Shown here: piece after piece, positions 4,799-17,204 of the stretch | Layout of the letters: each line of letters opens with the position of its first letter | Position numbering within the stretch: the first letter of the stretch is position 1 | Source of the DNA: a virus | Taxonomy: Duplodnaviria > Heunggongvirae > Uroviricota > Caudoviricetes | Direction: 5' to 3' (one strand) | DNA length: 24,063 nt | IMG/VR virus record: IMGVR_UViG_2657245124_000006 | Position numbers and translations under genes: made by a program | The notes under the pieces: model-generated | Database searches by the model: none | What the model was told of the DNA's origin: nothing | What the model saw: only the letters and a program-made list of their open reading frames with translations

Positions 4799-5652
4799 GC
4801 ACCATCCTGAAATGGGCGGGTAATAAAACCGCCATTATGTCCGAACTGAAAAAATACCTTCCTGCTGGCCCGCGACTGGTTGAACCTTTCGCGGGTTCTT
4901 GTGCTGTGATGATGGCGACGGATTACCCCAGCTATCTGGTTGCGGATATTAATCCTGATTTAATCAACCTCTATAAAAAGATTGCCGCTGATTGCGAAGC
5001 GTTTATATCTCGTGCCAGAGTTTTATTTGAGGAAGCAAACAGTGAGCTGGCTTATTACAACATAAGACAGGAGTTTAATTACTCAACTGAAATTACTGAT
5101 TTCATGAAGGCGATATATTTCCTGTATCTCAATCGTCACGGTTACCGTGGTTTATGTCGCTATAACAAGAGCGGGCATTTCAACATTCCCTACGGTAATT
5201 ATAAAAATCCGTATTTCCCTGAAAAAGAAATTCGCGCATTTGCAGAGAAAGCCCCGCGGGCAACGTTTATCTGCGCCAGCTTTGATGAAACGCTGGCGAT
5301 GTTGAAGGCGGGGGATGTGGTGTATTGCGATCCGCCGTATGACGGTACGTTTTCCGGCTATCACACTGATGGTTTCACTGAAGATGACCAGTATCACCTG
5401 GCATCCGTTCTTGAACATCGGTCATCAGAAGGTCATCCGGTCATTGTTTCTAACAGTGACACATCCCTGATTCGTTCGCTGTATCGCAATTTCACTCACC
5501 ACTACATCAAGGCAAAACGCAGCATCGGCGTGTCGGCTGGCGAGAGTAAATCTGCAACAGAAATCATTGCTGTTTCCGGGGCGCGCTGCTGGGTGGGATT
5601 TGATCCTTCGCGTGGCGTGGATAGTTCTGCTGTGTACGAGGTGCGTGTATGA
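4795..5652 (+). CDS. dam: DNA adenine N6-methyltransferase, Dam (D12) family
   Basis: 285 aa from ATG at 4795 (GGAGG ribosome-binding site). Motif I-like '[10 protein letters not shown]' and catalytic 'DPPY' ('YCDPPYDGT'). Start overlaps the upstream stop (ATGA); stop overlaps the repA start. Confidence 0.88.
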
Positions 5653-8063
5653 GTCATGCCGATATGAGCGACTCTAGCGGCTTTAACGAGGCCGCTGCAG
5701 CATTTTCATGGAACGGCCCGAAAAAGGCCATAAACCCTTATCTGGACCCGGCGGAAGTTGCGCCGGTTTCTGCGCTTTCAAACCTGATCACTCTGTATGC
5801 TGCCGATAACGAGCAGGAACAGCTGCGCCGCGAGGAATTGAGTGAACAGGTCTGGGAGCGTTATTTCTTTAATGAATCCCGTGATCCTGTCCAGCGCGAA
5901 ATGGAGCAGGATAAGCTCATTAGTCGGGCAAAGCTGGCGCATGAGCAGCAGCGTTTTAACCCGGACATGGTCATTCTGGCGGACGTCAGCGCCCAGCCCA
6001 CCCACATCAGCAAGCCGCTGATGCAACGTATCGAATACTTCAGCAGCCTGGGCAGGCCAAAGGCTTATTCCCGCTATTTGCGTGAGACGATTAAGCCATG
6101 TCTGGAGCGACTGGATTGTGTACGCGACAGTCAGCTATCTACTTCTTTCCGTTTTATGGCAAGCCATCAAGGGCTGGAGGGCCTGCTGATCCTGCCTGAA
6201 ATGAGTCAGGATCAGGTGAAACGCCTGTCCACCCTGGTAGCTGCGCATATGAGCATGTGTCTTGAGGCCGCTTGTGGTGATTTGTATACCAACGATGACG
6301 TAAAGCCAGAAGAAATCCGCAAGACATGGGAAAAGGTGGCAGCGGAAACCCTGCGTCTGGATGTTATCCCGCCTGCGTTTGAGAAACTTCGTCGGAAAAG
6401 AAACCGCCGCAAACCTGTGCCCTATGAACTCATACCGGGTTCGCTGGCACGTATGCTTTGCGCCGACTGGTGGTATCGAAAATTGTGGAAGATGCGTTGC
6501 GAATGGCGGGAAGAGCAGTTGCGTGCTGTCTGTCTGGTCAGCAAAAAAGCATCTCCCTATGTCAGCTATGAAGCCGTGATGCATAAACGTGAGCAGCGCC
6601 GCAAGTCGCTGGAGTTTTTCCGTTCTCATGAACTGGTGAACGAAGACGGAGACACGCTGGATATGGAAGATGTGGTAAACGCCAGCAGCAGCAACCCGGC
6701 ACATCGCCGCAATGAGATGATGGCCTGCGTTAAAGGTCTGGAGCTTATCGCGGAAATGCGCGGTGACTGCGCCGTTTTCTACACCATCACATGTCCGTCA
6801 CGTTTCCATTCCACGCTCAATAACGGCAGGCCCAACCCGACCTGGACAAATGCGACGGTAAGACAAAGCAGCGATTATCTGGTCGGCATGTTTGCTGCAT
6901 TTCGTAAGGCGATGCACAAAACCGGGTTGCGCTGGTATGGCGTACGGGTGGCTGAGCCGCACCATGACGGTACTGTGCACTGGCATCTCATGTGTTTCAT
7001 GCGCAAAAAAGACCGCCGCGCCATTACTGCATTGTTGCGTAAGTTTGCCATCCGTGAAGACCGCGAGGAGCTGGGCAATAACACGGGCCCACGCTTTAAG
7101 TCTGAGCTGATAAACCCACGCAAAGGAACGCCGACAAGCTACATCGCAAAATACATCAGTAAGAACATTGACGGGCGTGGTCTGGCTGGCGAGATCAGCA
7201 AGGAAACGGGTAAATCCCTGCGTGATAACGCCGAATACGTTAATGCCTGGGCGTCTCTGCATCGTGTTCAGCAGTTCCGCTTCTTTGGTATTCCGGGGCG
7301 CCAGGCTTACCGTGAACTGCGATTGCTGGCTGGTCAGGCGGCAAGACAACAGGGTGACAAAAAAGCAGGTGCGCCGGTACTGGATGATCCGCGTCTTGAT
7401 GCCATCCTGGCTGCTGCTGATGCTGGTTGTTTTGCCACCTACATCATGAAGCAGGGCGGCGTACTGGTTCCCCGCAAATATCACCTTATCAGAACAGCTT
7501 ATGAAATTAACGAAGAGCCGACTGCCTATGGCGATCACGGTATTCGTATTTATGGCATCTGGTCACCCATTTCAGAGGGCAAGATCTGCACTCATGCAGT
7601 GAAGTGGAAAATGGTTCGTAAGGCCGTTGACGTTCAGGAGGCGGTAGCCGACCAGGGCGCTTGCGCCCCTTGGACTCGTGGCAATAACTGTCCCCTTGCT
7701 GAAAATTTGTACCAACAAGGGAAAGACAAATCAGCTGATGGGGGCTCCAGAACGGACATTACCCGCATGGATGACAAGGAATTGCACGATTACCTGCACA
7801 GTATGAGCAAAAAAGATCGCCGGGAGCTGGCAGCAAGGTTGCGCTTGGTGAAACCGAAACGGCGTAAAGACTACAAACAGCGAATTACAGATCATCAGCA
7901 TCAGCAGCTCGTCTATGAACTGAAGTCCAGAGGATTTGATGGCAGCGAGAAAGAAGTCGATTTGCTCCTTCGCGGTGGCAGTATTCCGTCAGGAGCAGGC
8001 TTGCGTATCTTCTATCGGAACCAGCGTTTGCGGGAAGATGATAAGTGGCGGAACCTGTATTAA
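5649..8063 (+). CDS. A: Replication initiation protein, P2 gpA-like rolling-circle HUH endonuclease
   Basis: 804 aa. HUH-like 'VHWHLMCF' and two-tyrosine motif '[12 protein letters not shown]'. Position matches P2 gene A. Confidence 0.85.
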
Positions 8064-8155
8064 TTACGCGGGTTAACAATTCGTGCTCTTAATAATACCA
8101 GGCATATCAGGCTGATGAACGTAAAAAAACGTTTTACATCAGTAAGATTATTATA

Positions 8156-8175
8156 TACTGTAAATATAAACAGTG
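8156..8175 (+). promoter_or_regulatory. LexA box (SOS operator)
   Basis: TACTGTAAATATAAACAGTG: CTG-N10-CAG with AT-rich centre, 17/20 match to TACTGTATATATATACAGTA. A TTTACA -35-like hexamer lies just upstream. It is 42 bp before the 8217 start. Confidence 0.65.
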
Positions 8176-8216
8176 GTTATGTATACAGCATTTCTTGTGG
8201 TGTCATAGGAGGAAAG

Positions 8217-8405
8217 ATGCAGGACTATTTTTTGGAGTCTTTGAAGCTCCAGCGCATTGATTTTTTTCTTAAGCTTGTAGCGGCTAGTGAGTGTAGTGAT
8301 GAAGAGAAGGGGCTGGCTTTGCAGTGGGTTTCTGAACTAACAGATGAACTCATGGCAAAAATCAGAACCCACGAATACAACCGCTCAATGGATGTCATCA
8401 GTTGA
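8217..8405 (+). CDS. Small hypothetical protein (62 aa), first gene of the SOS module
   Basis: ATG at 8217 with GGAGGAAAG ribosome-binding site. The track ORF from 8115 would read through the promoter and LexA box. Confidence 0.5.
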   Translation: MQDYFLESLKLQRIDFFLKLVAASECSDEEKGLALQWVSELTDELMAKIRTHEYNRSMDVIS

Positions 8406-8415
8406 GGTGACTTTT

Positions 8416-8649
8416 ATGCGCATTGAAATAATGATCGATAAAGAGCAGAAGATTAGCCAGTCTATCCTGGACGCCCTTGAATCCGAGCTTTACCGCAATC
8501 TGCGCCCCCTGTATCCCAAAACGGTAATTCGTATCCGCAAAGGTAGCTCTAACGGTGTGGAACTGACCGGACTGCAACTGGACGAAGAAAGAAAACAAGT
8601 GATGAAAATTATGCAGAAGGTGTGGGAAGACGACAGCTGGCTGCATTAA
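8416..8649 (+). CDS. dinI: DinI-family protein
   Basis: 77 aa from ATG at 8416 (GAGGTGA ribosome-binding site). 'MRIEIMIDKEQ...LDALESEL...ERKQVMKIMQKVWEDDSWLH' aligns with E. coli DinI as recalled ('MRIEVTIAK...IDALAGEL...DKQRISEILQETWESADDW'). Confidence 0.85.
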   Translation: MRIEIMIDKEQKISQSILDALESELYRNLRPLYPKTVIRIRKGSSNGVELTGLQLDEERKQVMKIMQKVWEDDSWLH

Positions 8650-8651
8650 GA

Positions 8652-8694
8652 AACGTTGCTGGCGTCTGAACTTGCTTCTGACGTCAGCAACGTT
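8652..8694. terminator. Strong hairpin after dinI; possible bidirectional terminator
   Basis: Arms AACGTTGCTGGCGTC and GACGTCAGCAACGTT form a 15-bp stem with one G.U pair and a 13-nt loop. No clean U-tract on the + strand; a short TCTT follows on the - strand. Confidence 0.4.
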
Positions 8695-8915
8695 GAACAA
8701 CTAGTTTAGTGGGGCATTAGTCATGGGGTAAAATACAGTAACCATTATTTTCACTTCCGCTCAGATTTAACCGAACGTTAGTTTTGCTACGTATGATGGG
8801 CTGCAAATTACCTTTTGGGATTTGTGATAGATACGAAAATCCTATTAGATGCTTGTTAGACCGGAAGCGCCACTTCGAACGAAAAGTAATGGCCACTTAT
8901 GCCGGTTTAAAAGCC

Positions 8916-9446
8916 TTAACCTTGTATAGTTATTTGAATATTTTCTTCATTGACACCAAAGTATAGGGCTAGCCCTGCTTTTGCCTCCTGAAGTGTTAAC
9001 GGCTTAACTACATTTTCTTCTTCTTCTTCGTACTCATCACCCGCTTGATCGACAATCGAATTAGTCGGGGTTAATTTTGGAAGAGCTTTAAATTCCAACT
9101 TGTCAGCCTCAATGCCAATGTCTTTGAGGTTGCGATAAGAAACGGGATTCCGATTGCCATCCCATTGTCCTGGGATGTCAATTTCAGCATAAGAATTGAT
9201 GTTTATGATCCAGCGTTTAGGGTTTTCTGGAGCCCTGCTTACTCCCGAGATTCGACCGATCATAAAAGCATGATGATGTTTTGCTTCTTGTGATCCCCAG
9301 TCCTTTCTCGAATTTTGTACACAAACTAAATATTCGTGCTTAGCTGCATGGCTGGCGTCAAGTCTCCATGCTTGGCTTCCCCCTGTGTTCAAAATCTCTG
9401 TTAAACCACGAGCAGTAAGTACAGTAATACAGTTGGTAGTAGCCAT
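8916..9446 (-). CDS. Uncharacterised 176-aa protein, cargo gene at the phage right end
   Basis: ATG at 9444-9446, no competing frame, AT-rich. Acidic patch 'DEYEEEEEN'. I recognise no family. Transcribed divergently from the OLD-like gene. Confidence 0.6.
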   Translation of the reverse strand: MATTNCITVLTARGLTEILNTGGSQAWRLDASHAAKHEYLVCVQNSRKDWGSQEAKHHHAFMIGRISGVSRAPENPKRWIININSYAEIDIPGQWDGNRNPVSYRNLKDIGIEADKLEFKALPKLTPTNSIVDQAGDEYEEEEENVVKPLTLQEAKAGLALYFGVNEENIQITIQG

Positions 9447-9763
9447 TGAATTGTGACCCCGTCTTTTTTAGAGAAATACTATTGATGAATGTAGTTTACG
9501 TATTTTTTTATTGAGTAGTCAAGTTAGTATTCTGCTCGTTATTGGCTGTTTTTTGAGTGTTGTGAGTTAGTACTTTGTGTAGTACCTCTTGGTTTATGAG
9601 GGTTAAATCTAAGTTATGACAAAGGGAGGCAGGGGGAACGCGCAGCGCAAGGTGTACAGGAGGCCATAAGGACTCACTTGAAGTAAGAAAAGATCGATAA
9701 AGCAACAATGCATGTCTATGCCGCATGAATTCGCATGATCGTTTGAGGATCGTTTTAGCTGAG

Positions 9764-9791
9764 GCCCGCTAGGAATGGCGGGCTTTTGTTT
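9764..9791 (+). terminator. Rho-independent terminator
   Basis: GCCCGC - TAGGAATG - GCGGGC followed by TTTTGTTT. U-tract is on the + strand only. Confidence 0.6.
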
Positions 9792-9832
9792 ATGTCATGC
9801 AAGTGCATGAAAACCACTACATAAAGCGGGCA

Positions 9833-9851
9833 GGCGTGGCGGGGATACGAG
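9833..9851. other. Putative cos (cohesive-end) site of the P2/186 family
   Basis: GGCGTGGCGGGGATACGAG. The first 13 nt match the P2/186 cos motif GGCG(A/T)GGCGGGGA as I remember it. Located left of Q/P, where cos is expected. From memory, not a database hit. Confidence 0.45.
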
Positions 9852-9888
9852 CGCGCGCTGGGAGGTATAAGAATGAAGTACAATTAAC

Positions 9889-9916
9889 TTCACTTTGTTG
9901 AGTAAAATGCTATAAG
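9889..9916 (+). promoter_or_regulatory. Putative promoter of the OLD-like gene: TTCACT - 16 bp - TGcTATAAG
   Basis: -35-like and extended -10-like elements about 70 bp upstream of the 9983 start. Confidence 0.35.
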
Positions 9917-9982
9917 AATAATGCAAATTATTGAGTCCCATTAGTTCAAAACTTAGGGATATCTTATGTGAAAGGAGGTTAT

Positions 9983-11668
9983 ATGTTAGATAAATTGATT
10001 TTTAATTCAGGAAGTAATCCAACATCTAAATCTTCATTATCGGTTGACTTGACTCCATTGACAATTTTTGTGGGGCCGAATAATAGTGGTAAATCTAGAG
10101 CTTTAATCGATATAGAAAATCAACTGACAACCCGAAATGCAGCGCAGGGAGAAGTAATAAAACAGATATTAATCAAACCACTTTCTGAGGATGAAGCAAA
10201 AAAGGAAATTGAATCTTTACAAGTTGAGCCAAACCAGGATGAAAAGCATGCGGGGCATGTTGTTTTATCTAGGCTAAACCTCCGTGGTGAAGGAATATCT
10301 AGGATTCTAGTGTATTTGGATGGAATGTTAAGAGAATTCCAGCAACCCAATGAATTCAATCGGGAGCATCTATATCAATATTACTCGTTGCTGACTCTAA
10401 GGTTGGATGGTAGAAGTCGACTTTCCTTAACTTCAAGTCAAGGTTCATCCGATTTACAAGGAGAACCTACGAATAACCTTTCATTTCTTTTTAAAAATAA
10501 TAAAGCAAGGATGGAGCTAAGAGATATCGTTTTTGATGCTTTCGGGAAGTATCTTGTTATTGATCCAACAAATATAGGTTATCTTAGAATTCGTCTTTCT
10601 GAGCGCGCTCCTGAGACTGAACAAGAAGAAAGAGGTTGGGATGAAAAGTCAGTGCTTTTTCATTCAAAAGCGTCATTGATTACAGAGGCTAGCGATGGTG
10701 TTAATGCTTTTGTTGGGATGATGATTTCGCTGATAGTTGGCTCACCAAAGGTGACTCTAATTGATGAGCCGGAAGCTTTTTTACATCCATCCTTATGCTC
10801 AAAGTTAGGAAAGGAAATATCTAGGATTAGTGCTCATAGTAATAAAAATGTGTTTATTTCAACGCATAGCGCTAATTTTTTAATGGGTTGTGTTCAAGGT
10901 AAAGTGCCATTGAATATAGTTAGGCTTACTTTTGATGGTAAATCTGGTACGTCTAGATTACTAACAAAGGAACAATTGACGCCGCTCATGAGAAATCCGT
11001 TATTAAGATCTATTGGTGTGCTAAACGCATTGTTTTATAATTACGTTGTCGTTACTGAAGCGGATGCAGATAGGGCATTTTATCAAGAGATTAATGAGCG
11101 CTTATTGGCTGCTGGAGATCCTCGGGGTATTGAGGGATGCCTGTTTTTGAATGCTCAAAACAAACAAACTGTTTGGGATATAGTAAAACCCCTTCGTGAG
11201 CTAGGTATTCCCTGCGTTGGAGTGGTAGATATCGATATATTGAAGGAGGGAGGAGTTGTATGGAAAAAACCAATGCTTGGAGCTTTTTTTCCAGAAATGA
11301 AGCATGAAACTTTAGGTTTGGAAAGACAAAAGCTTTTTCAAGCCTTCAAAAATACGAATAAAAATATGAAGACAGATGGGGGCCTCTCCTTGTTATCGGG
11401 TTCAGATAAAACCGCCTGCTCTGAGTTTTTTAAATCCCTTTCAGATTATGGGGTTTTTGTCGTTCCAACGGGCGAGATCGAGTCTTGGTTGCAAAATCTT
11501 GAAATAGGTCGAGGAAAGAATACTTGGTTAACAAGTATTTTCGAGAAGATGGGGGATGATCCTAATGATGAATCATATGTGAAGCCATCTGAAGGTGATG
11601 TTTGGGATTTTATTGGGAATATAAAGCACTGGTTGGTTAACCCTGAAAGGAAGGGTATTCCCGAGTGA
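9983..11668 (+). CDS. OLD-family / AbiL-like predicted nuclease (ABC-type ATPase plus C-terminal Toprim-like domain)
   Basis: 561 aa from ATG at 9983 (AGGAGG ribosome-binding site; track start at 9968 is GTG). Walker A 'GPNNSGKS', Walker B/D-loop 'VTLIDEPEAFLHPS', H-loop-like 'ISTHSAN'. C-terminal 'VVVTEADAD' and 'VGVVDIDIL' fit a Toprim E...DxD pattern. Very AT-rich. Confidence 0.8.
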   Translation: MLDKLIFNSGSNPTSKSSLSVDLTPLTIFVGPNNSGKSRALIDIENQLTTRNAAQGEVIKQILIKPLSEDEAKKEIESLQVEPNQDEKHAGHVVLSRLNLRGEGISRILVYLDGMLREFQQPNEFNREHLYQYYSLLTLRLDGRSRLSLTSSQGSSDLQGEPTNNLSFLFKNNKARMELRDIVFDAFGKYLVIDPTNIGYLRIRLSERAPETEQEERGWDEKSVLFHSKASLITEASDGVNAFVGMMISLIVGSPKVTLIDEPEAFLHPSLCSKLGKEISRISAHSNKNVFISTHSANFLMGCVQGKVPLNIVRLTFDGKSGTSRLLTKEQLTPLMRNPLLRSIGVLNALFYNYVVVTEADADRAFYQEINERLLAAGDPRGIEGCLFLNAQNKQTVWDIVKPLRELGIPCVGVVDIDILKEGGVVWKKPMLGAFFPEMKHETLGLERQKLFQAFKNTNKNMKTDGGLSLLSGSDKTACSEFFKSLSDYGVFVVPTGEIESWLQNLEIGRGKNTWLTSIFEKMGDDPNDESYVKPSEGDVWDFIGNIKHWLVNPERKGIPE

Positions 11669-11675
11669 GTTTATT

Positions 11676-11700
11676 GAGCCGCTTTAGCGGCTCTTTTCAT
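11676..11700 (+). terminator. Rho-independent terminator after the OLD-like gene
   Basis: GAGCCGC - TTTA - GCGGCTC followed by TTTTCAT, sitting between the convergent OLD-like and Q genes. Confidence 0.6.
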
Positions 11701-11704
11701 ATTC

Positions 11705-12733
11705 CTATGCAAGGTTATATTCATTAAATTGCATTATTGGCTCCTTTATCCATTCATTTACTTCTTGAAGCCTTTTTTGCAATGGAATTAGCTCATTACG
11801 GACAAAGACCCTGCTGGCTTTCTCCACATCCCCAAATCCCCCGACATTATTTGGCATTATCCCCATCATTTGTGGCGGCACACGATGCGCAGCCATCATG
11901 TCATCCCGGCTCACGTTCTTGATATTCAGAAACTCATCCTTCGCCGCGACTTCTGACAACGGGATGATCTGAAGCCCGTCCTTTTTGCCGTTAGGCGAGT
12001 ACATAAACAGGTTGCGGAAGTTGCCAGGGCCTTTGGCGCTTTTCATCGCATTGCGGAGGTTGTTCACATCCTCCTGGTTCTGCGCGGCATCGGTCATGTA
12101 CATGATGAAGCCTGCATGACTGCCGTTAATGTAATACTTCCGGCGGAACAGCGTGGCGGACTCGTTGAGCAGGGCTGACGGAATGGCAGAAAGATAACCT
12201 GGCAGGCCGTAGATCTCCTGGTTGATGTCAGGTTCCATCAGATGAAAAATGCTGCCTTTCGTGAACTGATACGGCTGGGTTGTCATACCGTATTGCACAA
12301 ACCAGTAGGTATCCAGGTCTAACCCGCGTCGGGTGTATTTTGCCAGCGCAGGCTCAAGGGCTATAACTTCACCGAATCGGTTCGTGCGTTTCTCCAGGTA
12401 GGCGTTACCAAATACCAGATAGTCCTGCACAAAACGCGAAAAAGCCTGTTGGCTGAGCAGCGGATGAGGGATATAGGTACTGGTCAGAATGTTGCACTTT
12501 ACTGCAATCGGGGAACTGTGATGCACGGCAGCCCGGAAGGTGCGCGCCAGTCCGTCAAAACTTACGGGTGGCTCATACCAGCGATCCGTCTGTACGCATT
12601 CTACATAGTCCAGCAGTTCGCGGCGGTCCAGTACAGGAATGGGATCACCAAAGCTGAAAGCTTCGGCTGAAGTTTGATTTTTATGCTGGCTCCGTTTCGT
12701 CGCAGCAGCGCGGTTTTTCTTACTCTTTCCCAT
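11705..12733 (-). CDS. Q: Portal protein, P2 gpQ-like
   Basis: 342 aa from ATG at 12731-12733 (track start is TTG). Same size and position as P2 Q. Start overlaps the P stop. Confidence 0.9.
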   Translation of the reverse strand: MGKSKKNRAAATKRSQHKNQTSAEAFSFGDPIPVLDRRELLDYVECVQTDRWYEPPVSFDGLARTFRAAVHHSSPIAVKCNILTSTYIPHPLLSQQAFSRFVQDYLVFGNAYLEKRTNRFGEVIALEPALAKYTRRGLDLDTYWFVQYGMTTQPYQFTKGSIFHLMEPDINQEIYGLPGYLSAIPSALLNESATLFRRKYYINGSHAGFIMYMTDAAQNQEDVNNLRNAMKSAKGPGNFRNLFMYSPNGKKDGLQIIPLSEVAAKDEFLNIKNVSRDDMMAAHRVPPQMMGIMPNNVGGFGDVEKASRVFVRNELIPLQKRLQEVNEWIKEPIMQFNEYNLA

Positions 12734-14499
12734 CAAAAAATCTCCACAATATTGCTGGTATTGGCGGACTCGCCCTGCAGCGGTTCGTTAAACAGTGCGT
12801 GCATTGTTGCCCAGGCCAGATCGGCGTGGCTGGCTTCTTCGCTGCGGCTAGCTTCATAGGTCGGGCGGTTGCCGCTGGCGGTGGTGGCGCGACGGATTGC
12901 CATGAATGACTGCGCAATGTCGGTGTGCCCGGCGTCAAACTCCAGACGGCGGTGGCTGATAATGTCGTAGGCCTTGAGTACCAGGGCGTTTTTAACGTTG
13001 GGGTTGTAGACAAACTCCCGGACGGCAGGAAAGAACGCTTTCACGTTCTCATAAACCCCGTGACCGACGCCTGTCGAGTCGATGCCGATATAGGTCACGT
13101 TGTACTGCTCGGTCAGTTTTTTGATTGCATCAGCCTGGGCGCGGAAGTCCATCCCGCGCCACTGGTGACGCTCAAGAATGCGAAACTTACCGCCTGGCAC
13201 GGCTGGCGGTGCCACCACCACGCATCCGGCGCTGTCGCCATTCTGCGTACCTTTTGCCGGGTCATAACCGATCCACACCTCGCGCCAGCCAAACGGGCGC
13301 AGGGCCAGTGCATGAAAGTCGGTCCAGACTTCCCAACTGTCCACCATGCACGCCTGCAGCTCGCTGAGCGGAAACACGGATGCGAGATCGTCCACAAACT
13401 CGCACATCAGCAGGTTCTGGTATTCGTCCGGGCTGTACTCCATGCGTAGCTGGTCGAGGTCGAACAGGTTACAGCCGCCGCGCACCGCATCTTCCACGGT
13501 GACTATCTGGCGGTATTGCCCGTCTGCGCACAGCAGGCCGGGGGCCAGATTGCTGTGGGACAGGTCGATGTCCACCTTATCGGCTTTGTTGCGCCCACGG
13601 TTGAACAGCGCACCGGACCAGAACGGATAAGCACTGTGTGTCAGACTGGATGGCGTGGAAAAATAGGTTTGTCGCCATTTTTTGTGAATAGCCATACCGG
13701 AAGCCACTTTGCGCAGCTCCTGGAATTTCGGTATCCAGAAATATTCATCCAGATACAGGTTGCCGTGGTAACTCTGGGCCGTGCGGGCATTGGTGCCGAG
13801 GAAGTAAAGCGTGGCCCCGTTAGGAAGCACCATCGGATCGCCTTTCAGCTCCACCTCCACTTCTTTGGCAAAGTCGATGATGTACTGTTTAAAGACGTGG
13901 GCCTGAGCCTTGCTGGCAGAAAGGAAAATCTGGTTACGCCCGGTCAGCAGGGCGTCAATCAGGGCTTCACGGGCAAAGTAAAAGGTCGCGCCGATCTGGC
14001 GTGACTTCAGCAGGTTGCGGATGCGGTTGGTTTTTCCGGCTTCCCACCAGTGGCGCTGGTAGTTGAACATAGAGGAATGGAAGATTTCTTCCAGTTTCTC
14101 AATCTGTTCATCGGTGAAAACATTCTTTTCCGGCTGACGACGTGGGCCTTTGTTGCGGTTGGCAACGTTAGGGTTTAAGTCGGCTTCGTTGCCGCCATTG
14201 TTAAACTTGCCGATCCGCGCGTGGCGCTCAGACTGGCGTGCCAGCAGGTCAATTTCTTTGAAATCTTTCCCTTCTTTGTGCTCCTTCATAATGAGCTGGC
14301 AGTAGCGTGCGGCGGTGGTGAGCTGCATCTGATCCAGCGGCCCATAGTCACCCCACTTGTCGCGTTTTTTCCAGCTGTGAACGGTTGCAACTTTCTCGCC
14401 CAGCATTTCAGCAATGCGGGCGACGCGGTATCCCTGAAAGTACAGCAGCATGGCCTGCCGACGGGGATCGAGATCTGCGGGTGTCAGTGTGGTGTTCAT
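12733..14499 (-). CDS. P: Terminase large (ATPase) subunit, P2 gpP-like
   Basis: 588 aa, ATG at 14497-14499. Divergent from O as in P2. Confidence 0.9.
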   Translation of the reverse strand: MNTTLTPADLDPRRQAMLLYFQGYRVARIAEMLGEKVATVHSWKKRDKWGDYGPLDQMQLTTAARYCQLIMKEHKEGKDFKEIDLLARQSERHARIGKFNNGGNEADLNPNVANRNKGPRRQPEKNVFTDEQIEKLEEIFHSSMFNYQRHWWEAGKTNRIRNLLKSRQIGATFYFAREALIDALLTGRNQIFLSASKAQAHVFKQYIIDFAKEVEVELKGDPMVLPNGATLYFLGTNARTAQSYHGNLYLDEYFWIPKFQELRKVASGMAIHKKWRQTYFSTPSSLTHSAYPFWSGALFNRGRNKADKVDIDLSHSNLAPGLLCADGQYRQIVTVEDAVRGGCNLFDLDQLRMEYSPDEYQNLLMCEFVDDLASVFPLSELQACMVDSWEVWTDFHALALRPFGWREVWIGYDPAKGTQNGDSAGCVVVAPPAVPGGKFRILERHQWRGMDFRAQADAIKKLTEQYNVTYIGIDSTGVGHGVYENVKAFFPAVREFVYNPNVKNALVLKAYDIISHRRLEFDAGHTDIAQSFMAIRRATTASGNRPTYEASRSEEASHADLAWATMHALFNEPLQGESANTSNIVEIF

Positions 14500-14641: not shown

Positions 14642-15475
14642 ATGACAGTGAAAGCAAAGCGTTTTCGCATCGGGGTGGAAGGTGCCACCACCGACGGACG
14701 CGAAATCCAGCGTGAATGGCTGGAACAGATGGCAGCCAGCTACAACCCGGCGGTGTATACCGCGCTGATTAACCTTGAGCACATCAAGTCTTATCTGCCG
14801 GACAGCACCTTTAACCGCTACGGCAAGGTGACGGCGCTGTTTGCTGAAGAAATAACGGAAGGTCCGCTGGCAGGCAAGATGGCGCTGTATGCCGATGTTG
14901 AGCCAACGGAGTCCCTGGTGGAACTGGTGAAAAAAGGCCAGAAATTATTCACCTCTATGGAAGTCAGCCCGAAGTTCGCTGATACGGGCAAAGCCTACCT
15001 GGTCGGCCTGGCTGCCACTGATGACCCTGCCAGTCTGGGTACGGAAATGCTGACATTCAGCGCCAGTGCAGCTCATAACCCGCTGGCAAACCGCAAGCAG
15101 AATCCTGCAAATCTCTTTACCGCTGCAGAGGAAACGGTGATCGAACTGGAAGAAATCCAGGATGACAAACCGTCCCTGTTTGCCCGTGTCACGGCGTTGT
15201 TTACCAAAAAAGAACAGTCCGATGACGCCCGGTTCTCTGATGTGCATAAGGCCGTGGAGCTGGTTGCCACTGAGCAGCAGAACCTGAGCGCACGCACCGA
15301 AAAATCCCTGTCTGAGCAGGAAGAACGCCTGTCTGAACTGGAGACTGCTCTGCAGGAGCAGCAAACCGCCTTTAACGAACTGGTGAATAAGCTGAGTCAT
15401 GAAGACAGCCGCCAGGACTACCGCCAGCGTGCAACAGGCGGTAACGCCCCCGCTGACACTCTGACCAATTGCTGA
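14642..15475 (+). CDS. O: Capsid scaffolding protein, P2 gpO-like
   Basis: 277 aa. 'FRIGVEGATTDGREI...INLEH' and C-terminal '...ATGGNAPADTLTNC' resemble P2 gpO. Confidence 0.88.
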   Translation: MTVKAKRFRIGVEGATTDGREIQREWLEQMAASYNPAVYTALINLEHIKSYLPDSTFNRYGKVTALFAEEITEGPLAGKMALYADVEPTESLVELVKKGQKLFTSMEVSPKFADTGKAYLVGLAATDDPASLGTEMLTFSASAAHNPLANRKQNPANLFTAAEETVIELEEIQDDKPSLFARVTALFTKKEQSDDARFSDVHKAVELVATEQQNLSARTEKSLSEQEERLSELETALQEQQTAFNELVNKLSHEDSRQDYRQRATGGNAPADTLTNC

Positions 15476-15491
15476 TGGAGCACAAAACCTG

Positions 15492-16550
15492 ATGAAGAAG
15501 AATACCCGCTTTGCTTTTAACGCTTACCTGCAGCAGCTGGCGCGTCTGAACGGTGTGGCAGTTGAAGAACTGTCCAGCAAGTTCACCGTGGAGCCGTCTG
15601 TACAGCAGACGCTGGAAGACCAGATCCAGCAGTCCGCCGCTTTCCTGACGCTGATTAACGTCACGCCAGTGACTGAGCAGTCCGGTCAGCTGCTGGGGTT
15701 GGGTGTTGGTAGCACCATTGCCGGAACCACTGACACCACCGCGAAAGAGCGTGAACCTGTCGATCCTACGCTGATGGTCGATGTGGAATACAAATGCGAG
15801 CAGACCAACTTTGACACGGTACTGACCTACGCGAAGCTGGACCTGTGGGCGAAGTTTCAGGATTTCCAGGTGCGTATCCGTGACGCCATCGTGAAACGTC
15901 AGGCACTGGACCGCATCATGATCGGCTTTAACGGCGTGAAGCGTGCGAAAACCTCCAACCGTAGCGAAAACCCGCTGCTGCAGGATGTGAACAAAGGCTG
16001 GTTGCAGAAAATCCGTGAGGATGCACCGGATCACGTCATGGGCAGCACCACCACGGGCGGTGAAACCACACCGGGCGCGGTGAAAGTCGGAAAAGGTGGC
16101 GAATATGCCAACCTGGACGCCGTGGTGATGGATGCCGTCAATGAGCTTATCGACGTGGTCTACCAGGACGATGACGATCTGGTGGTGATTTGCGGTCGTG
16201 AGCTGCTATCTGACAAGTATTTCCCGCTGGTCAACAAAGAGCAGGAAAACAGTGAAAAACTGGCTGCCGATATGATCATCAGTCAGAAACGCATGGGAGG
16301 CCTGCAGGCCGTGCGTGCGCCGTTCTTCCCGCCGAATGCGCTGCTGATCACCCGTCTGGATAACCTGTCCATCTACTGGCAGGAAGACACCCGCCGCCGT
16401 TCAGTTATCGACAACCCGAAACGTGACCGGATTGAAAACTTTGAATCCGTTAACGAAGCCTATGTGGTTGAGGACTACCGCTGCGCCGCACTGGTGGAAA
16501 ACATCCAGATTGGCGATTTCAGCGCCGCCGCAGCAGAAACCGGAGAGTAA
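15492..16550 (+). CDS. N: Major capsid protein, P2 gpN-like
   Basis: 352 aa. 'FAFNAYLQQLARLNGV...KFTVEPSVQQTL' and 'KVGKGGEYANLDAVVMDA' resemble P2 gpN. Confidence 0.9.
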   Translation: MKKNTRFAFNAYLQQLARLNGVAVEELSSKFTVEPSVQQTLEDQIQQSAAFLTLINVTPVTEQSGQLLGLGVGSTIAGTTDTTAKEREPVDPTLMVDVEYKCEQTNFDTVLTYAKLDLWAKFQDFQVRIRDAIVKRQALDRIMIGFNGVKRAKTSNRSENPLLQDVNKGWLQKIREDAPDHVMGSTTTGGETTPGAVKVGKGGEYANLDAVVMDAVNELIDVVYQDDDDLVVICGRELLSDKYFPLVNKEQENSEKLAADMIISQKRMGGLQAVRAPFFPPNALLITRLDNLSIYWQEDTRRRSVIDNPKRDRIENFESVNEAYVVEDYRCAALVENIQIGDFSAAAAETGE

Positions 16551-16553
16551 TCC

Positions 16554-17204
16554 ATGAGCCTGAGTCCCGCACGGCAGCATCGCCTGCGCGTTCAGGCTGA
16601 ACAGGCCGCCCGCGAGGGCGGCAGTGTTCGCCACGCATCGGGCTATGACCTGATGCTGCTGCAACTGGCGGAAGACCGCCGCCGTCTCAAGGGCGTTCAG
16701 TCCACGGTCAAAAAAGCGGAAATCAAGGTGGAGCTGCTGCCGAAGTACGCCGCCTGGGCAGAGGGTGTCCTGGCTGCCGGAGGCGCTCAACAGGATGACG
16801 TGCTGATGTACGTGATGCTGTGGCGCATTGATGCCGGAGATTATGCCGGGGCGCTGGAGATCGGGCGTCATGCCCTGCGTCATGGCTGGGTGATGCCGCT
16901 GGGTAACCGCAACGTGCAGACCGTGCTGGCAGAGGAAATGGCAGACGCCGCGCAGAGCGCAATGCTTGCCGCCACCGGCTTTGATGCCGATCTGTTGCTG
17001 CAGACGCTGGAGCTGACAGACGGTCTGGATATGCCGGACCAGTCACGGGCGCGTCTGCATAAAGCGATTGGCGCTGTCCTGAGTGAAAGCAATCCGGCTT
17101 CCGCCCTTAATCATCTCAACCATGCGTTACAGCTCGATCCCCGCTGTGGCGTGAAAAAAGACAAACAGCAGCTGGAGCGCAGACTGCGCAATGACAGCCG
17201 CTGA
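16554..17204 (+). CDS. M: Terminase small subunit, P2 gpM-like
   Basis: 216 aa, ATG at 16554 with GGAGAG ribosome-binding site, directly after N. Confidence 0.85.
   Translation: MSLSPARQHRLRVQAEQAAREGGSVRHASGYDLMLLQLAEDRRRLKGVQSTVKKAEIKVELLPKYAAWAEGVLAAGGAQQDDVLMYVMLWRIDAGDYAGALEIGRHALRHGWVMPLGNRNVQTVLAEEMADAAQSAMLAATGFDADLLLQTLELTDGLDMPDQSRARLHKAIGAVLSESNPASALNHLNHALQLDPRCGVKKDKQQLERRLRNDSR

Follow-up and report, generated by a model that had tools for sequence, protein, structure and literature searches.

In phage λ, cos is laid out as cosQ-cosN-cosB, and a nick site that yields 5′ cohesive ends is flanked by repeated short motifs. The terminase of phage P2 reportedly acts on circular monomers, an observation linked with the names of Pruss and Calendar and of Bowden and Modrich. 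For P2 and P4, a 55-bp cos core with 19-nt ends has been described by Ziermann and Calendar (1990), as cited in PMC5694545, PMC3931495, and PMC9594776, and longer cos flanks lift the efficiency of transduction more than 1000-fold (PMC9594776). A hotspot between gpA and gpQ adjoins cos (Rousset et al. 2022, PMC9122126), and the segment from cosL to gpQ is a pick-up site for foreign genes, a finding that PMC5694545 credits to Dodd and Egan (1996).

The DNA analyzed here, referred to as the window, is a stretch of 24,063 nucleotides that represents a Fels-2/186-like P2-family prophage of E. coli. Its landmarks are as follows. Gene A (bp 5649–8063) and DinI (bp 8417–8649) lie to the left of the locus under study. 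To the right are a Q-like portal gene (bp 11705–12736, minus strand; Pfam Phage_portal), the gene for a P-like terminase large subunit (bp 12733–14499, minus strand; Pfam Terminase_6N, Terminase_6C, and Terminase_5), and the gene for a P2 gpM-like terminase small subunit (bp 16554–17204, plus strand; Pfam Phage_term_smal, 2.2e-40), the product of which is presumably the reader of the motifs discussed below. The locus itself, bp 9447–9982, had been described in an earlier, sequence-only reading as one structured unit of 520 bp. That unity does not hold: conservation breaks sharply at 9708/9709 and again at about 9858/9859, and the locus consists of three adjoining parts, namely, the upstream region of a left cargo gene, cos, and the upstream region of a right cargo gene.

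The predicted cos site and its limits

We consider it very probable that bp 9708–9858 are the cos (cohesive-end) packaging site of a Fels-2-type P2-family prophage and that the sequences on either side are upstream regions of cargo genes. The site has gene A/DinI to its left and portal gene Q to its right, in an element that also carries gpP- and gpM-type terminase genes. The sequence-only reading had suggested a packaging region, with a cos-like motif in the second of two segments that it took to be related, and in this it was right: the second segment, bp 9824–9866, holds the predicted P2-family cleavage site. The motif, GGCGTGGCGGGGA starting at bp 9833, is the sole site of its kind within the window. 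The predicted 19-nt 5′ cohesive end is GGCGTGGCGGGGATACGAG, bp 9833–9851 of the plus strand, a GC-rich end (pattern GGCGWGGCGGGGA......) with a single occurrence in the window. It matches the annotated cos of SEN8 at 19/19 positions, the end of 186 at 15/19, and that of P2 at 14/19. The 186 and P2 ends are known experimentally and are annotated in their records; the SEN8 cos is itself assigned by annotation. Nicking is predicted to occur at 9832/9833 in the top strand and at 9851/9852 in the bottom strand. The sequence records of SEN8 and EtG terminate exactly at the equivalent of bp 9832, and those of R18C and 476A terminate within 1 nt of it.

A comparison with the cos regions of P2 and 186, which the sequence-only reading had put forward as a check, bears the assignment out, since a base-for-base alignment is obtained between the block and the joined ends of P2, 186, and P4. 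The block also aligns with the joined ends of SEN8 and with Fels-2, RE-2010, MLG42, and Kp4845-2. By alignment, bp 9804–9858 of the plus strand are the equivalent of the published 55-bp P2/P4 core, with identities of 42/55 to P2, 44/55 to 186, and 43/55 to P4.

The conserved DNA as a whole is an island of 151 bp, bp 9708–9858 of the plus strand, or −125 to +26 when numbered from the nick in the top strand. Mean identity among 54 cos sites of this type falls from 0.898 within −125 to +26 to 0.35 just outside. In blastn searches, 97–106 P2-family phage records match solely over the cos block, and prophages that are otherwise near-identical differ in the cos flanks. Conservation is confined between the breakpoints 9708/9709 and 9858/9859, and the flanks beyond are variable. 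In a wider family set of 118 loci, the pattern used for retrieval fixes positions −29 to +13, so the invariance of these positions in that set is not independent evidence. The GC-rich block recognized by the sequence-only reading is present (GC 0.48 over bp 9600–9899 versus 0.33–0.40 in the flanks), and it is mostly cos DNA with the composition of the prophage backbone, with an AT-rich foreign cassette on either side.

Homology with P2 and 186 suggests that the site would work as follows. During lytic growth, the phage’s own terminase would recognize cos on replicated phage DNA and make a staggered cut, at 9832/9833 in the top strand and 9851/9852 in the bottom strand. The resulting 19-nt 5′ overhangs, GGCGTGGCGGGGATACGAG, would be the ends of virion DNA and would re-anneal after injection. 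Candidate recognition elements are three copies of GCATG at −123, −110, and −100, an ATGCA-NN-TGCAT dyad at −36 to −25, and the nick-proximal core.

Repeated motifs and a hairpin in the left arm

The GCATG motifs and dyads singled out by the sequence-only reading are indeed clustered, with five copies, at bp 9710, 9723, 9733, 9796 (minus strand), and 9805, within 100 nt. GCATG is under-represented in the window as a whole (48 copies found versus 91.6 expected), and the Poisson probability of at least five copies in 100 nt is about 2e-6. Three direct copies (9710, 9723, and 9733; bp 9710–9737, plus strand) are spaced by 13 and 10 bp and are candidate terminase recognition sites. The corresponding GCAT is found at −123, −110, and −100 in 83/118, 96/118, and 104/118 family cos regions, respectively (70–88%), and these positions lie outside the pattern used for locus retrieval. 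Next to the triplet, at bp 9737–9758 of the plus strand, a repeat finder identified a tandem 11-mer, GATCGTTTGAG / GATCGTTTTAG, which contains two Dam (GATC) sites and is kept in Fels-2-type cos sites. Closer to the nick, bp 9795–9810 form the dyad TCATGCA-AG-TGCATGA; ATGCA is present at −36 in 91 of the 118 family members. Judged from the alignments, the GCATG-centred motifs are conserved parts of cos that occupy fixed positions across the family, and terminase may bind at them.

Between the GATC 11-mers and the dyad lies a GC-rich hairpin (bp 9764–9791, plus strand), found by scan and by folding, in which bp 9764–9771 pair with bp 9776–9783 around a GGAA loop and are followed by TTTTGTTT. 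The sequence-only reading had called this an intrinsic terminator of the plus strand, and the shape is confirmed: at bp 9761/9764–9791, the terminator scan finds 11 pairs, made up of an 8-bp core stem with G-U extensions, and the GGAA-looped hairpin runs into UUUUGUUU. The RNA fold has a predicted energy of −20.5 kcal/mol (z = −4.85), and none of 200 shuffles is as good. In Fels-2-type cos sites, TTT follows the stem in 54/54 cases, and a mean of 7.7 of the 8 pairs can form. When the stem columns are examined in the whole-family alignment, 79% of cells pair, as against 28–44% in slid controls. P2-type and 186-type sites have about 5/8 pairs and no T-run, and P2 itself lacks the hairpin. Because the hairpin is only partly kept in P2- and 186-type sites and is absent in P2, a universal role in packaging is doubtful.

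It had also been remarked that no plus-strand gene lies upstream for such a terminator to serve. This is true locally, but only because the insertion of a minus-strand cargo gene has separated DinI from cos. Where relatives have nothing in the left slot, the hairpin lies about 130 nt past the DinI stop codon. In the window, the A, orf, and DinI genes farther upstream are co-oriented with it. The terminator scan finds no other strong plus-strand terminator between DinI and cos, either in the window or in MLG42. Gene order and sequence conservation suggest that the hairpin is most likely the intrinsic terminator of the rightward A/DinI transcription unit. The hairpin at −69 to −50, with its T-run, would stop transcription of the A/DinI operon inside the left arm of cos, and termination there would spare cos, the right cargo, and the head-on portal–terminase operon from rightward transcription.

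Alternatively, the hairpin of bp 9764–9783 may primarily be a DNA-level element of cos, that is, a dyad or cruciform bound by terminase or by a host factor, with its likeness to a terminator being secondary. Its position relative to the nick is fixed family-wide, and the inner CCAG...CTGG is conserved in sequence even where the outer stem varies. The outer pairs show compensatory changes (GC 55, CG 22, and UG 11 for columns 72–91; CG 52 and GC 15 for columns 74–89), and P4 and 186 have a hairpin without a T-run at the same place. However, P2 packages well without such a hairpin, only about five of the eight pairs form in P2-type and 186-type sites, and the T-run is invariant (54/54) exactly where the stem is strongest, which is the prediction of selection for termination. 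We consider a primarily DNA-level role unlikely, though far from negligible, and note that the two roles are not mutually exclusive.

It is tempting to propose that in the Fels-2-type lineage a terminator has been fixed in the left arm (−69 to −42), replacing the nick-proximal dyad of P2 and P4. The 28-nt element would then have two roles, one as an RNA terminator that keeps early or SOS transcription out of cos and the convergent portal–terminase operon, the other as a terminase spacing or recognition element. The phased GCATG triplet and two Dam sites would be the array to which the gpM small terminase binds, on that side of the nick which becomes the right end. The proposal is a tentative one, and taken as a whole we think it has the lesser chance of being correct.

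Termination of the A/DinI unit also has to be weighed against a discrete plus-strand small RNA that ends at the 9764–9791 terminator, as the sequence-only reading had envisaged, and that might regulate, for example, the neighboring cargo genes or packaging. The strong terminator shape, strictly conserved in Fels-2-type cos, would suit such an RNA, as would the fact that in the window no plus-strand gene ends directly upstream of the hairpin. Nevertheless, no σ70-like plus-strand promoter is found in bp 9300–9760, and there is no match to an Rfam family: a scan of bp 8500–12000 at permissive E-values returned noise only, in the form of eukaryotic miRNA and lncRNA models. To the left of the hairpin, conservation reaches only as far as bp 9708, and what is conserved there are the GCATG/GATC motifs common to P2, 186, and P4 sites that have no T-run. 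Since the sequence left of bp 9708 is unrelated between relatives, any promoter must sit within the 56 nt of cos motifs, which are also all that there would be of a conserved RNA body. Folding of the whole of bp 9709–9795 is only marginal (z = −1.85), and in empty-slot relatives the hairpin directly follows DinI, so the DinI transcript is available for termination. With a promoter, a family match, and a conserved body beyond the cos motifs all missing, a small RNA gene is improbable.

Exchangeable cargo on both sides of cos

On each side of the cos site is a cargo slot of the published P2 defence hotspot, and the two slots exchange their contents independently of each other; unrelated cassettes occupy the same positions, between gpA and gpQ, in related prophages. 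In the window, the right slot, between cos and the portal gene, is occupied by a gene for an OLD-family ATPase-TOPRIM nuclease of 561 residues (bp 9983–11668, plus strand), identified with Pfam and PADLOC. The protein matches the Pfam ATPase models AAA_15 and AAA_21 and also OLD-like_TOPRIM, the last with 23.4 bits against a cut-off of 23.2. Its best PADLOC match is Old (1.3e-20), its RefSeq name is “ATP-dependent nuclease”, and an alignment of 312 residues with P2 Old shows 24% identity (E 3e-12). A hairpin terminator (bp 11676–11693, from the terminator scan) lies between this gene and the portal gene and is placed as are tQ of P2 and tW of 186, both annotated in the records of those phages. 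Elsewhere the right slot holds a HIRAN pair (MS1665), a hypothetical gene and an HNH endonuclease (SEN8), or unrelated genes (Fels-2 and RE-2010), and in MLG42 it is empty.

The upstream region of the OLD-like gene, bp 9859–9982 of the plus strand, is specific to this cargo, as relatives diverge immediately past +26. The GGGAGG and the mini-ORF ATG AAG TAC AAT TAA listed by the sequence-only reading are present, at bp 9860–9887, and the 4-codon ORF (bp 9873–9887) might be thought of as a translated leader that regulates the OLD-family gene downstream. The GGGAGG is Shine-Dalgarno-like and lies 7 nt before the ATG, and the ORF is 96 nt upstream of the OLD-like start. Against a regulatory leader, the DNA that contains the ORF belongs to the cargo and differs between relatives, and what conservation the ORF shows is uninformative because it is limited to copies of this one cargo that are nearly identical (99.4% identity). 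Furthermore, bp 9860–9982 have no fold signal (z 0.16), and no plausible promoter is found upstream of the mini-ORF except inside cos. The likeliest cargo promoter, TTCACT-16-TATAAG (about bp 9888–9915, located by eye), lies downstream of it. We regard a leader function as very improbable.

On the other side, comparison with empty-slot and other-cargo relatives delimits a left cargo cassette of bp 8705–9708 (minus strand), in a variable slot between DinI and cos. Its gene (bp 8916–9446, minus strand) encodes a 176-residue protein that matches phrog_37247, function unknown; there is no Pfam, PADLOC, or NCBIfam match to the protein and no known defence annotation for phrog_37247. The promoter/upstream region of the gene is the 262 bp from 9447 to 9708. 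The cassette is found in only 8/5,426 complete E. coli genomes, and a search of these genomes and of phage records for other contexts of bp 9500–9708 returned nothing beyond the eight copies of the same cassette. In other prophages, the left slot carries a 111-residue gene (strain 1105) or two other genes (EC11), or is empty (MLG42 and Kp4845-2). An ORF of 72 codons at bp 9508–9726 of the minus strand is considered spurious; it has no Pfam or PHROG match, is unannotated in RefSeq, and has its start inside the GCATG motifs of cos.

The left cassette includes a G-rich block, bp 9617–9668, that the sequence-only reading had taken for the left member of a pair of related segments of about 45 bp (bp 9621–9665 and 9824–9866) and had suggested as terminase-binding repeats. 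The two segments resemble each other no more than expected by chance. Their best local alignment scores 11, which is reached by 14% of 2000 shuffles; scores as high as 14 are obtained when other tiles of the window are aligned with the cos core, and an unbiased repeat finder does not report the pair. Against 118 family cos cores, the score of the left segment is reached by 13–23% of shuffles and by 30% of random window tiles. Neither strand of the G-rich block gives a fold signal (z +1.32 and +0.31), and folds of bp 9590–9708 on both strands are no better than shuffles.

There is hardly any chance that these segments are functional direct repeats, whether bound by terminase or derived from a duplicate or relic of cos that stayed behind when cargo was exchanged via cos ends. 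In favor of such repeats, both segments have a purine- and G-rich composition with a GGAGG-like string at the end, and a relic cos is conceivable given the speculation of Rousset et al. that cos ends promote recombination at the hotspot (PMC9122126). Against them, the alignments are at chance level against both the window’s own cos and the 118 family cores. The left segment is not part of the 151-bp island, accompanies only a single, rare cassette (that of 8/5,426 E. coli genomes), and has none of the cos motifs that are invariant in the family, namely, AAAACC, AAGNGGGC, and GGCGWGGCGGGG. A relic cos at bp 9617–9668 was rejected on the same chance-level alignments.

Comparison with cos sites of P2-family phages and of λ

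The cos sites of P2 and the defence hotspot around them are already known, and the locus raises no new question for specialists. The assignment does fix the annotation: what had been a structured intergenic region is a packaging site, which marks the predicted virion ends at 9832/9833 and 9851/9852. The two neighboring AT-rich genes, one of which encodes an OLD-family nuclease, become recognizable as exchangeable cargo in the slots of the known P2 defence hotspot. In addition, the 151-bp unit, −125 to +26, gives practical limits for the design of Fels-2-type cosmids or transducing particles, in agreement with PMC9594776.

The cos sites of P2, 186, and P4 have the same position in the genome, from the A-gene side to portal gene Q, and the same orientation as the site described here. 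They share the ATGCA-NN-TGCAT dyad at −36, with ATGCAACTGCAT at the place of the bp 9795–9810 dyad, and their GCAT triplets coincide with the one here in spacing and in position (−123, −110, and −100). The differences are as follows. The final bases of the cohesive end are ATACGAG here and AAAGCAC or AAAGCAT in the P2, 186, and P4 sites. The nick-proximal dyad of P2 and P4, CCGCCC..GGGCGG, is degenerate here. The strong hairpin and T-run at −69 to −42 have no counterpart in P2, whereas 186 and P4 have a hairpin without a T-run; the terminator annotated in 186, t95b, precedes the GCAT triplet and is outside cos.

Also close are the Fels-2-type cos sites of Salmonella phages Fels-2, RE-2010, SEN8, and SopEPhi and of Klebsiella and Yersinia Peduoviridae, which have 87–96% identity over bp 9709–9870. 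These sites have the same hairpin and T-run, the same tandem GATC 11-mers, and cargo genes on both sides. Only the cargo differs, along with a single C-to-T change in the stem, by which the C-G pair at bp 9770/9777 becomes T-G.

As in the window, the defence hotspot of P2 has variable cassettes set directly against cos and includes an OLD-family nuclease, P2 old. The arrangement is not the same, however, as the OLD-like gene here lies on the portal side of cos on the plus strand, whereas P2 old lies on the A side on the minus strand.

With λ cos, the locus shares a general logic, in that repeated motifs are candidate sites for the small terminase subunit, but no sequence similarity. The overhang is 19 nt here and 12 nt in λ, and, in contrast to λ, the extended conserved arm lies here on the side that would become the right end of virion DNA.

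The cos block between gene A and the portal gene

The window matches part of the chromosome of E. coli strain 1297KP at 100% identity and is a P2-family (Peduoviridae) prophage. Rightward replication gene A (5649-8063, + strand) and a DinI-like gene (8417-8649, +) are followed by leftward genes for the portal (11705-12736, -) and terminase large subunit (12733-14499, -), and then by scaffold (14642-15475, +), major capsid (15492-16550, +) and terminase small subunit (16554-17204, +). The region under study, 9447-9982, lies in the A-to-portal interval. GC content is 0.48 across 9600-9899, against 0.33-0.40 in the flanks; the phage backbone has about 0.51.

Judged by alignment, the backbone block at 9708-9858 is cos, the cohesive-end packaging site. 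A packaging region, to be compared with the coses of P2 and 186, had been suggested by the sequence-only reading; when the right and left ends of P2, 186, and P4 are joined, they indeed align with the block base for base and in the same orientation. The cos-like motif that it pointed out, GGCGTGGCGGGGA, is present once, at 9833. The equivalent of the 55-bp core published by Ziermann and Calendar in 1990, as cited in PMC5694545, PMC3931495, and PMC9594776, is 9804-9858, with 42-44 of the 55 bp identical to P2, 186, and P4. The window's counterpart of the 19-nt cohesive end, GGCGTGGCGGGGATACGAG (9833-9851), has exactly the sequence annotated as cos in Salmonella phage SEN8. Database records of SEN8 and Erwinia EtG stop precisely where 9832 would fall, and those of R18C and Yersinia 476A at most one base from there. 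Positions relative to cos are counted from the predicted top-strand nick at this point (9832/9833).

A pattern scan of IMG/VR added 117 unique cos regions, giving a family set of 118 in which positions -29 to +13 are fixed by the retrieval pattern and are not independent evidence, whereas positions outside are. The 54 sites with the window's 19-mer, here called Fels-2-type as distinct from P2-type and 186-type, have a mean pairwise identity of 0.898 over -125 to +26 and of 0.35 in the 10-19 nt immediately beyond. This delimits a conserved unit of 151 bp (window 9708-9858).

Most sequence features listed in the sequence-only reading are found where it placed them, but the relatedness of two segments of about 45 bp (9621-9665 and 9824-9866) proved spurious. 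Their best local alignment has a score that 14% of shuffles attain and unrelated window tiles exceed, and a repeat search of the window did not report the pair. Shuffles and random tiles come as close to the 118 family cos cores as the left segment does.

Left-arm motifs and the hairpin with T-run

Three GCAT(G) motifs at -123, -110, and -100 occur in 83, 96, and 104 of the 118 sites, respectively, and P2, 186, and P4 have a GCAT triplet with the same 13/10-bp spacing. Nearer the nick are a dyad, ATGCA-NN-TGCAT, at -36 to -25 (91/118 sites) and an AAAACC...AAGCGGGCA stretch extending up to the nick. Five copies of GCATG lie between 9710 and 9809, although the pentamer is under-represented across the window (48 found versus 91.6 expected); the Poisson probability of five in 100 nt at the observed density is about 2e-6. 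Since their positions are fixed across the family, the GCATG "dyads" noted earlier are real, conserved elements of cos. From position and conservation, the GCATG motifs are candidate terminase binding sites, which agrees with a published >1000-fold gain in transduction from cos flanks extending past the 55-bp core (PMC9594776). Two tandem 11-mers, GATCGTTTGAG and GATCGTTTTAG (9737-9758), conserved among Fels-2-type coses, each start with a Dam site, placing two methylation sites one helical turn apart in the left arm. It is possible that these link methylation state to packaging.

A hairpin at -69 to -50 and the T-run behind it (together 9761/9764-9791) gave the strongest terminator-like signal in a scan of 8000-12000. 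The fold (-20.5 kcal/mol, z = -4.85) was equalled by 0 of 200 shuffles, bearing out the + strand terminator structure noted in the sequence-only reading. When all family sites are aligned, 79% of cells pair in the 8-pair stem, compared with 28-44% after the partners are slid, and compensatory changes occur in the outer pairs. The signal comes largely from Fels-2-type sites, which average 7.7 of 8 pairs; the stem is followed by TTT in 54/54 and by five or more Ts in eight in 51/54. P2-type and 186-type sites average about 5/8 pairs and have no T-run, and P2 itself lacks the hairpin.

The simplest reading is that the Fels-2-type hairpin is the terminator of rightward A/DinI transcription. Where relatives have nothing in the left slot (the DinI side of cos), about 130 nt separate it from the DinI stop upstream and no further terminator intervenes, and the scan found no other strong + strand terminator from DinI to cos in the window. 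For the corresponding operon of 186, the annotated terminator is t95b, which sits shortly before the GCAT triplet. The sequence-only reading saw no upstream + strand gene for the hairpin to terminate, and none does lie directly upstream; on the present reading, it serves the rightward A/DinI unit and looks orphaned only because a minus-strand cargo gene was inserted upstream.

Alternatively, the hairpin may have a DNA-level role in cos. A second dyad, CCGCCC..GGGCGG, at about -24 to -5 (window 9809-9832), reads as a minus-strand hairpin followed by TTTT. This nick-proximal dyad is strong in P2-type and P4-type coses and degenerate in the window, whereas a strong -69 to -50 hairpin with T-run is confined to the Fels-2 type; these hairpins seem to be alternatives. 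The proposed small RNA is unsupported, as the promoter scan gave no promoter-like + strand site for it, Rfam gave no match, and only 56 conserved nt, all cos motifs, precede the hairpin. Folding of the cargo-side segments gave no signal (z +1.32, +0.31, and +0.16).

Two cargo slots flanking cos

Among E. coli prophages, 9709-12000 is common to hundreds of genomes at about 99% identity, with different sequence left of 9709, and strain 1105 matches everything but 8660-9704. In Klebsiella phage Kp4845-2 and Yersinia phage MLG42, only about 25 bp separate the DinI region from the 9709 equivalent; in MLG42, the equivalent of about 9858 leads to the portal region without any gene, so that both slots are empty. 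Because of these sharp breakpoints, what was taken for a single 520-bp non-coding unit resolves into three: a left cargo cassette (8705-9708), the backbone block (9708-9858), and a right cargo cassette (about 9859-11700).

The left cassette, which just 8 of 5,426 E. coli genomes carry, comprises a minus-strand 176-aa gene (8916-9446) and its upstream region. The protein belongs to phrog_37247, a PHROG of unknown function, and has no Pfam, PADLOC, or NCBIfam match; sited in a known defence hotspot, it is a candidate for an uncharacterised single-gene anti-phage or moron function. Far upstream of the gene, in otherwise AT-rich cargo, is a G-rich block, GGGAGGCAGGGGGAACGCGCAGCGCAAGGTGTACAGGAGG (9617-9668), that gives no fold signal, is not significantly similar to cos, and occurs only together with the cassette. 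A 72-aa ORF (9508-9726, -) starts inside the cos GCATG motifs and extends across the upstream region of the cargo; it matches no family, is absent from the RefSeq annotation, and is probably spurious.

The right slot, on the portal side, holds an OLD-family ATPase-TOPRIM nuclease gene (9983-11668, +; Pfam AAA_15, AAA_21, and OLD-like_TOPRIM), which in virion DNA would be the gene nearest the left end. Between this and the convergent portal gene is a 36-bp gap with a GC-rich hairpin, GAGCCGCTTTAGCGGCTC (11676-11693), in the position of P2 tQ and 186 tW; it probably terminates both genes. The 4-codon ORF noted earlier is present at 9873-9887, but its translation is unsupported: it lies in cargo-specific sequence, relatives diverging directly after +26. 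Unrelated genes fill the right slot in Fels-2, RE-2010, SEN8, and E. coli MS1665. MS1665 pairs the same 176-aa left cargo with a hypothetical gene and a HIRAN-domain gene in place of the OLD-like nuclease; thus, the slots vary independently.

Relation to known P2-like loci

The sequence-only reading correctly sighted a known feature; among its details, the 45-bp repeats are spurious, and the small RNA and the mini-ORF are unsupported additions. Rousset et al. (2022) described the cos-adjacent gpA-gpQ hotspot of P2-like phages and a core cos signal common to P2 and P4 (PMC9122126), and a 2026 study confirms the hotspot at scale (PMC13586616). In PMC5694545, recognition of cosL-to-gpQ as a foreign-gene pick-up site is credited to Dodd and Egan (1996) and Nakayama et al. 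(1999). The right cargo protein has Old as its best PADLOC match, with 24% identity to P2 Old, but P2 old lies on the opposite side of cos and on the opposite strand. The sole mildly new detail is a terminator-shaped hairpin strictly associated with Fels-2-type cos, which could, along with the phased GCATG and GATC motifs, be part of terminase recognition.
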